From assembly GCA_903871715.1 (NCBI GenBank), contig CAIQHW010000601.1, forward strand, positions 1 through 30,959: a DNA stretch of 30,959 bases. Reading direction: 5' to 3'. Each line of letters starts with the position of its first letter. Position 1 is the first letter of the stretch. A model generated the notes under the pieces. The model was given only the letters and a program-made list of their open reading frames with translations. It had not been told where the DNA came from and ran no database searches. Below are positions 17,835 to 22,458 of this stretch, piece by piece. The position numbers and the translations under genes are program-made. This stretch comes from an uncultured bacterium (GTDB taxonomy: Bacteria; Bacteroidota; Bacteroidia; Chitinophagales; CAIODY01).

Positions 17835-20510
17835 TTACCCCAACGTAGGCCTCAACCATTTCTCAGCATCTTCATAACTCATTCCTTTTCGTTGAGCATA
17901 ATCAGCTAATTGCGATTTATCAATTTTTCCAACGCCGAAATATTTAGCATGCGGCGAAGCAAAATACCAACCGCTCACACTTGCAGCAGGATACATTGCC
18001 AACGATTCTGTTAAAGTAATTTCAGATTGCTTGGTTGCATCAATCAACTCAAACAATTTTATTTTTTCAGTATGGTCAGGGCAAGCAGGATAGCCTGGTG
18101 CAGGACGAATGCCATTGTATTCTTCAGCAATCAATTGTTCATTGGTTAAAGTTTCTACAGTTTCATAACCCCAATATTCTGTTCTAACTTTCTTATGCAA
18201 TAATTCTGCAAATGCTTCAGCAAGCCTGTCAGCCAAGGCTTTCAGCATGATAGAAGAATAATCATCATGATTATCTTCAAATTGTTTTACGTACTTTTCA
18301 ATGCCAATTCCTGCCGTAACTGCGAATGCTCCAATGTAATCCTGAGAATTGCTTTGCTTCGGCGCAATAAAATCTGCAAGACAAAGATTTGGTTGATTAG
18401 ATGCTTTAGTTGTCTGCTGTCTTAAAAATTGCAAATTGATATTTGATGATTGTAAATTGATTTCCACATCATCTGCATCATTTGAATTGGCTTCAAAAAT
18501 TCCAAACGAAGCTTTTGCAGTCAACCATTTTTCTGAAATAATTTGCTGCAACATTTTTTGAGCATCATTGTATAAATGTGTTGATTGTTCACCAACAATT
18601 TCATCTTTTAAAATGGCAGGAAATTTTCCGTGCATTTCCCAAGTGATGAAAAACGGCGTCCAATCAATATATTCAGCTATTTCAGCCAAGTCGTAATTCT
18701 CTAAATGTTTTACACCAATGAAATTTGGTTTAGCAATTTTTTCTTTTGCCCAATCAATTTTGAATTTGTTTTCTCTTGCTTTTTCAATTGGCAATAATTT
18801 TTTGTCAGATTTTTTATTGGCAAAATCTTCTGCCAATTTTTGATATTCTGCTTTTACTTCCGAGGTAAATTTTTCTTTTTCTTCACTCAACAAAGTGGTT
18901 GAAACATTCACACTTTTCGATGCGTCCAACACATGAATCACTGCATTATTGTAGGCTGGTGCTACTTTTACAGCAGTATGCATTCGGGATGTAGTGGCAC
19001 CGCCAATCATCAATGGAATGGTAAAACCTTGACGTTGCATTTCGCTTGCCACATGCACCATTTCATCCAACGATGGTGTAATCAATCCACTCAAACCAAT
19101 AATGTCAACATTTTTTTCTTTAGCTGTTTGCAATATTTTTTCGGCATGAACCATCACTCCTAAATCAATAATTTCATAACCATTACAACCCAATACCACA
19201 CCCACTATGTTTTTGCCGATGTCGTGTACATCGCCTTTCACCGTTGCCATCAATATTTTTTTTGCACCGCCTTGGTCAAAACTTGGATTATCTAATTTTT
19301 CTTGTTCGATAAAAGGTGTAAGATATGCCACCGATTTTTTCATTACTCTGGCACTCTTCACCACTTGAGGTAAAAACATTTTTCCACTACCAAATAAATC
19401 ACCCACCACACTCATTCCAGCCATCAACGGACCTTCAATCACATGCAAAGGACGACCATACTTTTGTCGAGCTTCTTCTGTATCTGCATCAATGTATTCG
19501 ATGATGCCATTCACTAACGAATGTGTCAAACGTTCTTCCACTGTGCCTTTACGCCATGTTTCATCTTTTACTAAAACTTTTCCTTTGCTCTTAATTGTAT
19601 CAGCATGCGCAACTAATCTTTCTGTAGCATCATCTCTTCGATTTAAAATTACATCTTCCACCAACTCCAATAATTTCGGTTCAATTTCATCATAAACCTG
19701 TATCATTCCTGCATTTACAATACCCATGTCCATACCTGCTTTGATAGCATGATACAAGAACACTGAATGAATTGCTTCACGAACAACATCATTTCCTCTG
19801 AACGAAAATGACACATTACTCACACCACCACTTACTTTCACCAATGGCATTTTTTGCTTGATGATTCTTGTGGCTTCAATAAAATTCACCGCATAATTAT
19901 TATGCTCTTCAATGCCTGTGGCTACTGCAAAAATGTTAGGGTCGAAGATGATGTCTTGCGGTGCAAAACCAACTTGCTCCGTCAAAATTTTATACGCTCT
20001 TTCGCAAATCGAAACTTTTCTTTCAATCGTATCAGCTTGCCCTTGTTCGTCGAAAGCCATTACCACAACGGCTGCGCCGTACATCAAACACAATTCGGCT
20101 TCGTGAATAAATTTTGCTTCGCCTTCTTTCATCGAAATCGAATTCACAATCGCTTTGCCTTGCACACATTTCAAACCAGCCTCAATCACACTCCATTTGC
20201 TGCTGTCAATCATTATTGGCACTTTGCTGATGTTAGGTTCGCTGGCAATCAAATTTAAAAATTTGGTCATCGCAGCTTCGCCATCCAACATACCTTCATC
20301 CATGTTCACATCAATAATTTGTGCACCATTCTCCACCTGCTGCAAAGCCACAGCCAAGGCTTCATCGTATTTATCTTCTTTGATTAATCGAGCAAACATT
20401 TTCGAACCAGTTACGTTGGTACGTTCTCCGATGTTGATGAAATTAGTATCTGGTCGAAGCGTTAATGGTTCAAGTCCTGAAAGTTTTAAGTATGGATGTA
20501 TTGTTGTCAA
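17835..20510 (-). CDS. metH: Cobalamin-dependent methionine synthase, C-terminal part (pterin-binding, B12-binding and reactivation domains)
   Basis: [27 protein letters not shown] (DxHxxG), [21 protein letters not shown]; TTG start with an in-frame stop 8 codons upstream. Confidence 0.95.
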
Positions 20511-20512
20511 GA

Positions 20513-20543
20513 TGTATGAATTACGAGTTAAGAATTATGAGTT
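20513..20543. repeat. Degenerate 7-nt tandem repeat, consensus RTTAYGA, about 4.4 units
   Basis: TGTATGA ATTACGA GTTAAGA ATTATGA GTT. Confidence 0.55.
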
Positions 20544-20791
20544 TGTTTTCTTTTGAAAAAGTGTTTTTTGAAAAGAAAAAAATTCAACAAGAAAATCAAA
20601 ATGATTAAAGCATAGCAAACTAAAAAAGTAAGAATCTTCGTTTGATGGGTTGGAGAAATTTCATTTTTATCCTCATCAAACGAAGCAAACCAAGGAGCAA
20701 AAAACAACATAATCGCAAACAATAGCGATATAGCGAAACAAGCCACCAATGATACTTTGAACAGTATGTTTTTGTTTTTTTTCAAAATCAT
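20528..20791 (-). CDS. Small two-TM hypothetical membrane protein
   Basis: 87 aa with two hydrophobic stretches; start overlaps the ORF6N stop (ATGA). Confidence 0.55.
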
Positions 20792-21330
20792 TTTTTCTTT
20801 TTAAATCCTTCAATCACAGTTCTCGGTTTTGCTTCTTGTTGCAGTAGTTTATTTAGGTAATCGAAAATAGTTTTCATTTTCCTATCGTGCGATGTGAACT
20901 TAAATTCCAACTGTTCCAATTTCAAATACAAGTCTTTATGTTCTAAAATAAATCCCTTCATTTTGGTAAACAATCTGATGATTTGAATATTCACTTCGAT
21001 TGCTCTATCCGATTTCAAAACACTCGAAAGCATTGCTACGCCTTGTTCGGTGAAGGCGTAAGGCAAATATTGAGTGCCGCCTCTCTTTTCAAACTTTGAG
21101 GTCACAATTTGTGACCTCAAAGTTTCCCATTCTTCTCTAGATAGTTGAAACATAAAATCATCAGGAAACCTTTTAAGATTTCTTTTTACTGACTGTATTA
21201 AAACTTTCGTTTCAACTTCATACATTTCCGCTAAATCCCTATCCAACATAACTTTCTGACCACGAATAATAAATATTCGTTCCAATATTTGTGTGTCGGA
21301 AATAATTATTTCGGTAGATTTATTTTTCAT
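20788..21330 (-). CDS. ORF6N domain DNA-binding protein
   Basis: IRGQKVMLDRDLAEMYEVETKVLIQSVKRNLKRFPDDFMFQL, LRSQIVTS, GGTQYLPYAFTEQGVAMLSSVL, C-terminal coiled coil. Confidence 0.92.
   Translation of the reverse strand: MKNKSTEIIISDTQILERIFIIRGQKVMLDRDLAEMYEVETKVLIQSVKRNLKRFPDDFMFQLSREEWETLRSQIVTSKFEKRGGTQYLPYAFTEQGVAMLSSVLKSDRAIEVNIQIIRLFTKMKGFILEHKDLYLKLEQLEFKFTSHDRKMKTIFDYLNKLLQQEAKPRTVIEGFKKKK
21091..21125. repeat. Perfect 35-bp palindrome inside the ORF6N coding sequence
   Basis: AAACTTTGAGGTCACAA-T-TTGTGACCTCAAAGTTT (17-bp arms, 1-nt centre). Confidence 0.95.
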
Positions 21331-21351
21331 TCTAAATCGTTTTTATTCTCC

Positions 21352-21411
21352 AAAATTGGAAGTTGCAAATTGTGACTTCAAATTTCTCTAAGATTCCAAT
21401 TTGGAATCTTA
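21352..21411. repeat. Two tandem palindromes upstream of ORF6N, related to the internal one
   Basis: Unit 1 AAATTGGAAGTTGCAA-A-TTGTGACTTCAAATTT (13/16 paired, centre 21369); unit 2 TAAGATTCCAA-T-TTGGAATCTTA (11/11 paired, centre 21400). Confidence 0.85.
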
Positions 21412-21416
21412 AAATT

Positions 21417-21432
21417 CTTTGTGTCTTTGTGG
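21417..21432. repeat. 8-nt tandem repeat CTTTGTGT-CTTTGTGG
   Basis: Seen directly; abuts the stop codon of the N-terminal metH gene. Confidence 0.5.
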
Positions 21433-22458
21433 CTATACTGTTTCAAGTGTTGGCAATTCTCTCGGTTTAAACTTCTTCATATGCTCCGCCATGTGTTTAA
21501 TATGGTCAGGTGAAGTGCCGCAGCAGCCGCCAACAATATTTACCCAACCATTCACAACCCATTCATCAATCACAGCACACATCATTTCAGGCGTTTCATC
21601 ATAGCCACCAAATGCATTTGGCAAACCTGCATTCGGATAACAACTCACATAACACGATGCAATTTGATTCAATTCTTCAATGTGCTGACGCATATCAGCC
21701 GCTCCCAAAGCACAATTCAAACCAACAGAAAATGGTTTGGCATGAGCAATGGAAGTATAAAAAGCTTCTAAAGTTTGTCCACTTAAAGTTCTGCCACTGG
21801 CATCGGTGATAGTACCGCTAATCATTATCGGCAATTCAATTTGCTTGTCTTTAAAATATTTTTTCGTGGCAAAAATTGCAGCTTTTGCATTTAATGTATC
21901 GAAAATCGTTTCGATTAAAATGATGTCAACGCCGCCATCCACAAGGGCTTCCACTTGTTCATAATAGGCTTGCATCACTTCATCAAAAGTTACAGCACGA
22001 TAACCAGGATTGTTTACATCAGGAGATAGCGACAGCGTTCTGTTGGTTGGACCAATTGCTCCTGCAACAAAACGAGGTTTGTCAGGATTTTTTGTTGTGC
22101 ACTCCAATGCCGCAGCTTTGGCCAATTTCGCTGATTCAAAATTGATGTCGTAAACTTCATTTTGTAAATGATAATCAGCTTGCGCAATAGTAGTTCCACT
22201 GAATGTATTGGTTTCAATAATATCAGCACCAGCTTCCAAATATTCTTTATGAATAGCCGAAATAATATCAGGTCTTGTGATGGACAACAAATCATTATTG
22301 CCTTTCAAATCGTGCTTGGAATCTTTGAAAAATTCACCGCGATAATCGGCTTCAGTGAGTTTGTAACGCTGAATCATAGTGCCCATAGCACCATCGATTA
22401 TTAAAATGTTTTTTGAAATTGCGGCATGTAAAGCCGCTGTGGTAGCAGGTTGTGTCAT
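21433..22458 (-). CDS. metH: Methionine synthase N-terminal part (homocysteine S-methyltransferase domain)
   Basis: [20 protein letters not shown], zinc ligands GLNCALG and VGGCCGT; own TAG stop. Confidence 0.93.

Follow-up and report, generated by a model that had tools for sequence, protein, structure and literature searches.

The closest described systems are those of the lambdoid phage repressors, with their operators OR1-3 and OL1-3 and the helix-swap results obtained with 434 and P22. Sites located inside coding sequences are also known, including lacO2 in lacZ, galOI in galE, purR boxes, the lambda O/ori-lambda iterons in gene O and parS in parB/spo0J. Proteins of the type studied here match Pfam ORF6N, the PADLOC phage-defence candidate PDC-S05 and PHROG anti-repressors, all of which are sequence labels, and none of which describes palindromes. 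Our literature searches on ORF6N found nothing about palindromes, and those combining KilA-N with palindrome and operator returned no reports.

The window analysed in this work (30,959 nucleotides, contig CAIQHW010000601.1 of an uncultured Chitinophagales bacterium) encodes an ORF6N protein of 180 residues on its minus strand (20788..21330). Pfam, PADLOC and PHROG profiles and an AF2 model describe it as an N-terminal helix-turn-helix domain followed by long C-terminal helices. The protein matches Pfam PF10543 over residues 18-104 (E 5.9e-36, 123.1 bits for a cut-off of 27.8) and the PDC-S05 profiles over residues 7-171 of 180 (E 3.5e-61), and it also matches PHROG anti-repressor profiles. The genetic setting is a metH operon, with no obvious defence island. 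The methionine synthase of this locus is split: its homocysteine S-methyltransferase part is encoded by the upstream neighbour, metH-N (21433..22458, minus strand; PF02574, E 1.3e-102), and its pterin-binding, B12-binding and activation part by the downstream neighbour, metH-C (17835..20510, minus strand; PF00809, PF02607, PF02310 and PF02965). An 87-residue membrane ORF lies between the ORF6N gene and metH-C, and its ATG overlaps the ORF6N stop codon as ATGA (20788-20794).

A sequence-only reading of this DNA had noted two tandem palindromes in the 102-nt gap between the ORF6N gene and metH-N (21331-21432), with the same core as a longer palindrome inside the gene. It proposed three models for them: stored cassettes of other alleles, operators of a protein whose specificity segment is encoded by its own binding site, or single-stranded DNA hairpins used by a mobilizing enzyme. 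As read from sequence, the gap palindromes are most likely putative binding sites for ORF6N-type proteins, rather than spare coding cassettes. We consider it probable that they are double-stranded operators of the ORF6N family, which would have arrived with the gene as one module between the split metH halves.

Both gap palindromes are odd-centred and share the CAA-W-TTG core of the internal palindrome, with their centres 31 nt apart, at 21369 and 21400, as had been claimed. The proximal, operator-like palindrome (hereafter unit 1; 21352..21386, minus strand), centred 39 nt before the ATG, reads GAAGTCACAA-T-TTGCAACTTC on the coding strand. It is a hybrid, with one half-site TCACAA, cognate to Gln46 of the protein by the code presented below, and one half-site TTGCAA. 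The distal one (unit 2; 21389..21411, minus strand), centred 70 nt before the ATG, is a perfect 11+1+11 palindrome, TAAGATTCCAA-W-TTGGAATCTTA, with arms at 21389-21399 and 21401-21411. Its core is TTCCAA on both arms, which is the Lys46/Asn43 class and non-cognate to the window's own protein, of type Val43/Gln46.

Shuffling of the gap with preservation of dinucleotides indicated that these similarities are not random. The reported 26/35 identity between unit 1 and the internal palindrome was confirmed and was reached in none of 20,000 shuffles (mean 16.7, maximum 25), and a genome-wide search (2.6 Mb) yielded a single other, unrelated 35-mer with 25/35 identity to the internal palindrome. The repeat finder recovered unit 2 as the perfect 11-bp inverted repeat described earlier, and 8 of 20,000 shuffles produced an odd palindrome as good. 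It also joined 21090-21124 in a direct-repeat family with 21351-21385 (77%, unit 1) and 21382-21416 (60%). A suspected third core, TCCAA-AA-TTGGA (21349-21360), turned out to be merely a 5+2+5 even-centred repeat over the outer arm of unit 1, and we did not count it. The in-frame readings of the units as NLKSQFATSN and ILRFQIGILE are arithmetically correct, but the units are not ORFs. The motif variants LxSQ[IF][VAG]TS and LRFQxG, which the earlier reader had put forward, do exist in ORF6N homologues.

The internal palindrome (21091..21125, minus strand) spans codons 69-80 and is a perfect 17+1+17 repeat, ETLRSQIVTSKF, found with the repeat finder and evaluated by synonymous recoding. Its arms are at 21091-21107 and 21109-21125, and its core, TCACAA-W-TTGTGA, is cognate to Gln46. 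For comparison, we used 101 ORF6N genes, collected from 30 same-order loci and 80 loci from many phyla (31-65% G+C) and anchored through the protein alignment, not through the palindrome. The same codon position is palindromic in approximately 90 of these 101 homologues. Across arm positions 1-13, Watson-Crick complementarity amounts to 73-96% (86% overall), and sliding one arm by 1-3 nt reduces it to 18-30%. Several types of base pairs are found at arm positions 4, 5, 7, 8, 10, 11 and 13. Upon synonymous recoding of the same peptides, 87 of the 101 genes scored above 99% of their recodings, and the window's palindrome scored 17 for a null maximum of 13. The central CAA/TTG is 93-96% complementary, the geometry is invariant across homologues, and G.T-type mismatches on the sense strand are not in excess (47, versus 76 of A.C type). 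Because the centre is paired and there is no G.T excess, recognition of a duplex is favoured over that of an RNA hairpin. The peptide encoded by the palindrome looks like a tolerated passenger. In the AF2 model, its residues (69-80) take in the last part of helix 65-74 and the first part of a low-confidence loop, after which come the long C-terminal helices.

Some homologues (loci L015, of genome G013, and L049) have two tandem palindromes within the coding sequence, with duplication of the motif (NLISQNATSS...NWISQIAISN). In the probable source sample, de Bruijn contigs break at the internal palindrome, with one contig stopping at 21098 and the next exact piece starting from 21217, a break that the 35-bp palindrome probably caused during assembly.

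The sequence-only reading had suggested a survey of ORF6N loci for tandem upstream palindromes, and such a survey located units before other ORF6N genes as well, at a constant distance from their start codons. Taking as units odd palindromes with a CA..TG core and a score of 9 or more, the 150 nt that precede the gene in the 101 homologues, from many phyla, contain 1.74 per kb, compared with 0.035 per kb in the other flanks and 0.07 per kb downstream, i.e. an approximately 50-fold upstream enrichment over flanking DNA. At least one upstream unit is present in 18 of the 101 homologues, and in 9 of 25 same-order relatives. The centres cluster between -27 and -48 from the assigned ATG, with others between -56 and -70 and farther, and the -39 and -70 positions of the window's units fit this pattern. 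When compared over arm positions 4-13, 7-13 and 4-6, units were at most weakly, and not significantly, closer to the internal palindrome of their own locus than to those of other loci (p 0.16; p 0.07-0.09).

In the window's own genome (2.6 Mb), seven CAA-N-TTG palindromes score 10 or more; three of them are at two ORF6N loci and the rest are terminator-like. A scan with the core pattern likewise placed palindromes of the unit type at these two ORF6N loci only, the terminator-like ones aside. This distribution rules out a dispersed repeat family of the REP/BIME type.

Arrays in other genomes can combine different sequences or repeat the same one. One locus (L011, in G015, a 97% complete genome with one paralogue) harbours three upstream units of the TCG, GC and TCA classes in front of an Arg46-type gene; since this genome has a single paralogue, resident paralogues cannot explain the array. 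In G044 (L102 and L133), an identical 33-bp palindrome of the TTCCAA type occurs twice, approximately 98 nt apart, upstream of a Lys46/Asn43-type gene, and a weaker copy is found downstream.

The strongest argument for the operator reading comes from the relationship between these DNA sequences and the predicted recognition helix. In the AF2 model (mean pLDDT 75), a beta-hairpin is followed by helices 30-37 and 41-50, which together form a helix-turn-helix. A fold search against the PDB identified no solved DNA-bound relative at E below 1e-3; the best-ranked hits, to Ski/Dachshund and MarR winged-helix proteins, were weak. The predicted recognition helix, TKVLIQSVKR (codons 41-50, 21181..21210, minus strand), was delineated from the AF2 helices and from mutual information. 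Outside the residues encoded by the palindrome, those most strongly linked to base pairs 4-5 are residue 46 (z 33), residue 43 (z 20) and residue 47, and base pair 7 has its strongest mutual information with residue 42. In the window, the codons of the two residues that covary with base pairs 4-5 are at 21202-21204 (Val43) and 21193-21195 (Gln46), both on the minus strand.

The triplet preceding CAA in the internal palindromes follows a simple code. TCA goes with Gln46 (42/43), TCG with Glu46 and Arg43 (22/23), (A/T)GC with Arg46 (14/14), TTC with Lys46 and mostly Asn43 (5/6), and TTG with Leu46 (2/2). The same associations appear in a second census, of 89 genes in 44 genomes, with 28, 25, 10, 2 and 1 cases, respectively, and one exception, which is a pseudogene. 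Phylogenetically independent pairs were taken from a tree built without these columns, and all of them agree in direction: 7 to 0 for Q/CA (p 0.016), 5 to 0 for E/CG and, for R/GC, 4 to 0, three further pairs showing no core difference.

As the code was derived from internal palindromes, the upstream units are independent of its derivation. Nevertheless, 48 of 80 upstream half-sites are cognate to the neighbouring protein, versus 26.2 +/- 5.4 expected, a value reached in none of 20,000 permutations; six genes that have lost the internal palindrome are included in this result. By the same code, 13 of 40 upstream units are non-cognate, unit 2 among them. The cognate core of the window's Val43/Gln46 protein is TCACAA, to which the internal site corresponds fully and unit 1 in one half. 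Since residues 43 and 46 predict bases of both internal and upstream palindromes, we read the latter two as predicted duplex operators of the ORF6N helix-turn-helix. Among the three models proposed earlier, the operator model best accommodates the fixed distance from the ATG and bases predicted by the neighbour's recognition helix. The accompanying idea of a binding site that encodes the protein's specificity segment is not supported, as residues 43 and 46 lie approximately 25 codons upstream of the palindrome-coded segment. Outer-arm positions 8-11 covary strongly (z up to 35) with residues 85-88, in the loop that follows this segment; this loop, or wing, may read the outer arms, or both may simply be inherited together as one recombination patch.

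Comparison with orthologous loci revealed how the classes of the units vary. The two closest orthologues (G005 and G006; 87-88% identity) are also located between metH halves and have units at -39 and at approximately -68. The hybrid TCACAA/TTGCAA of unit 1 is identical in one of them (L005, in G006), and the other locus, L004, has a TTCCAA unit in the proximal slot. Over the three orthologous loci, the outer arms are constant in each slot, TTTAAG(A/G) in the distal and TT(T/G)GAA(G/A) in the proximal one. In contrast, the core triplets vary, with compensation on both arms: TTC, (A/T)CA and TCA in the distal slot; TCA/TTG, TTC and TCA/TTG in the proximal slot. Fixed outer arms combined with compensated core changes argue that the classes were switched in place and neither decayed nor shuffled. 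As far as sequences tell, this is the new detail of the present locus, namely a mixed-class array whose core classes are switched on both arms between orthologous loci.

The proposal that unit 2 records a paralogous specificity stands in so far as its TTCCAA core belongs to another class. Consistent with it, G005 has both a TTCCAA upstream unit and a Lys46/Asn43 paralogue with a TTCCAA internal site. However, only Gln- and Arg-type ORF6N genes were found in the window's own genome (84% complete), with no Lys46/Asn43 paralogue. The related suggestion that upstream units match the palindromes of other paralogues in the same genome did not fare better across genomes: 6 of 11 non-cognate units have a same-genome paralogue of the matching class, compared with approximately 4.6 expected (89 genes, 44 genomes). 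Such matches are thus no commoner than chance, and cross-regulation by resident paralogues, discarded as a general rule, is a lead and not a finding.

What these operators might do can be sketched as follows. The ORF6N protein would be a helix-turn-helix protein, presumably dimeric through its C-terminal helices. Each half-site would be read by one recognition helix, with residue 46, together with residue 43, setting base pairs 4-5 beside the invariant CAA. A dimer on unit 1, over the likely core promoter, and on the internal site as a second operator would result in negative autoregulation. Because unit 1 is half cognate and lies approximately 39 nt before the ATG over this likely promoter, negative autoregulation is the most likely function that we infer. 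Unit 2 might be a deliberately weak or differently tuned site, or else a site for a Lys46/Asn43-type protein, whether encoded in this genome but missing from the assembly or coming in from outside. The internal site could equally well act as a roadblock, which would suit a cassette that lands in foreign operons such as metH. The sequences show the sites, where and how often they recur, their presence together with the gene and the covariation of helix residues with bases; from these we infer binding, repression, dimerization, promoter overlap and the role of unit 2.

Regarding the promoter, TAnnTTTG is the Bacteroidota -7 consensus, and a candidate -7-like box read from the sequence, CAATTTTG (21351..21358, minus strand), just downstream of unit 1, matches five of its six specified positions. 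TTTG is also found at 21379-21382, 20 nt upstream of this candidate box. Across loci, -7-like boxes are inconsistently placed relative to the units, and a sigma-70 promoter scan is uninformative for this phylum. The distances between internal and proximal sites, calculated from their centres, are 233-278 bp with no common helical phase, and looping therefore has no specific support.

The genus also offers an empty site. The congener G001 has the metH genes and the small membrane ORF, and both the ORF6N gene and the palindromes are missing from it. As gene and palindromes are missing together, the upstream units appear to belong to the ORF6N module and not to metH regulation. The membrane ORF of G001, diverged but in the same position, indicates that this ORF is probably native to the site, being there despite the absence of ORF6N. 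The gap between the metH halves (window 20511-21450) behaves in the genus as a landing pad for small genes (loci L146-L149, in G001, G004, G007 and G003, respectively). It contains ORF6N in G000, G005 and G006, a 23S_rRNA_IVP gene (PF05635) in G003 and G004, and the small membrane ORF with neither of these genes in G001; in G007, from another genus, it is empty and just 78 nt long.

The second ORF6N gene of the window's genome (contig C366) is flanked by 46-nt direct repeats, 96% identical and 668 nt apart (L001:1195-1240 and L001:1863-1908), both repeating the 3' terminus of the gene before it (KIMLKFAKLMI...), an arrangement that resembles a cassette inserted with duplication of its target. 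We considered two repeats of the window as possible cassette ends, a 19-nt direct repeat flanking the CDS (20792-20810 and 21323-21341) and a 14-nt inverted repeat (20754-20767 and 21435-21448), and rejected both as low-complexity or chance matches.

The alternative that survives best, although we regard it as unlikely, is that the units are hairpins or cruciforms, of single-stranded DNA or of RNA, recognized by shape by a factor acting in trans, or else signals for mRNA stability or processing, their sequence classes being incidental. The many compensatory changes that maintain arm complementarity are in keeping with it, and a perfect palindrome by itself does not tell a duplex site from an extruded hairpin. 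As RNA, the gap has a stable fold (-22 kcal/mol, z -4.2), a result driven by unit 2, and a scan for terminator-like structures flagged both units, only on the plus strand, antisense to the genes. Nevertheless, the central CAA/TTG would be the loop of a hairpin, where neither the complementarity described above nor a geometry that never varies would be expected, and the sense strand shows no excess of G.U-type mismatches. In addition, unit 1 forms no hairpin of its own in the minimum-energy fold of the sense strand, the transcribed strand has no U-tract, and a factor that reads only shape would not need the bases to be predicted by helix residues. No Rfam family scored above threshold; the best hit, to an unrelated miRNA model, had 26 bits (gathering score, 57). 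As immediate neighbours there are the metH genes and the small membrane ORF. The earlier model of single-stranded DNA hairpin substrates is disfavoured by these neighbours, by a centre that is paired, by a geometry that is fixed and by the code linking helix and bases. More specific candidates of this kind are not supported: ends of IS200/IS605 elements or integron attC sites, given (near-)perfect arms with a fixed 1-nt centre and no mobilizing enzyme among the immediate neighbours, and an intrinsic terminator of metH-N, given stems with three G-C pairs and no T-run after the units on the minus strand.

Slightly less plausible still is that an earlier specificity of the locus has left behind unit 2, and perhaps the non-cognate half of unit 1 as well, as decaying relics, or that they are functionless chance look-alikes. 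The lack of a detected Lys46/Asn43 paralogue in the window's genome, the chance-level rate at which resident paralogues match non-cognate units and the different core triplets of orthologous loci are all compatible with this view. Nevertheless, decay would not give core changes compensated on both arms with outer arms fixed per slot. Moreover, unit 2 is perfect over its 11-bp arms, a quality rarely attained by the shuffled gap, and other non-cognate units have near-perfect arms too.

Least of all do we favour the view, which we find very improbable, that the palindrome-coded segment is replaced, by gene conversion, from units that serve as silent cassettes or are remnants of other alleles: the divergent patch outruns the palindrome by approximately 25 nt, reaching loop sequence to which the upstream units are not homologous, no donor is found among the sampled paralogues, no recombinase is adjacent to the ORF6N gene, and the units keep a promoter-like spacing from the ATG in unrelated loci and obey the neighbour's helix code. 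In its favour, palindromes are known recombination hot spots, the three orthologues, otherwise approximately 90% identical, fall to 17-63% identity exactly across the palindrome and the loop after it (window 21127-21070), and the internal palindrome of L004 is 29/31 identical to its own distal upstream unit. A blastn search of all fetched loci and of the window's genome yielded no donor for the hypervariable patch. Logan contigs assembled for three samples, all of the same lake-water study, agree completely over 21217-21487, with no variant over the units; this uniformity is weak evidence, as contigs hide minor forms. Silent cassettes of the pilS/pilE type were rejected, as the units cover just the 31-35-nt palindrome.

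Relative to L004 and L005, the hypervariable patch (21070-21127) comprises the outer arms of the palindrome and the loop, with segments TSKFEKRGGTQY, ILEVSGRGQFPKY and TSSWGGKRK. The subfamily type of the segment found there differs from one orthologue to the next, so that some recombination or fast turnover must take place.

Returning to the operator reading, a broader and more tentative view, to which we give a minority share of our confidence, is that ORF6N genes are portable, self-contained regulatory modules, each with an operator in its own coding sequence and a two-residue code (43, 46) for base pairs 4-5. Mixed-class arrays could then sense other ORF6N-type proteins, i.e. resident paralogues or incoming phage anti-repressors, and their classes might be rewritten in place on both arms as these partners change.

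Small genes of the ORF6N (PDC-S05) type are very widespread and horizontally mobile, and we describe for them a readable protein-DNA code and sites inside and before the gene. The code would permit the prediction of operators from two residues and their reprogramming by helix swaps, and it makes it possible to ask what mixed-class arrays sense. The "LRSQxxTS" motif is largely a translated DNA site, and because of this nucleotide constraint, analyses of residue covariation or of motifs in the ORF6N family can mislead. The array of the window is in itself fairly ordinary, and the unusual part is the family-wide internal site.

Among known systems, REP/BIME elements resemble the window's array in being short, imperfect tandem palindromes in an intergenic gap. 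Unlike them, the ORF6N palindromes are not found genome-wide, one copy is intragenic, and they covary with the neighbouring protein. As with lacO2, galOI, the purR boxes, lambda O and parS, the site lies within a gene, sometimes the regulator's own, and would act with or besides promoter sites. Whereas those are single-lineage cases, the ORF6N site is found at the same codons in approximately 90% of homologues from many phyla, and it shapes the amino acids that it encodes. Replication-origin or centromere roles such as those of lambda O and ParB have no support for ORF6N. The resemblance to the lambdoid systems lies in tandem palindromes of unequal quality over a promoter, which is a candidate here, and in helix-turn-helix proteins whose specificity is set by a few solvent-exposed residues of the recognition helix, with heteroimmune classes among relatives. 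Unlike the lambdoid repressors, ORF6N belongs to that family neither by sequence nor by fold, its arrays mix specificity classes, and one of its putative sites lies within the regulator's own coding sequence, at a codon position fixed throughout the family.
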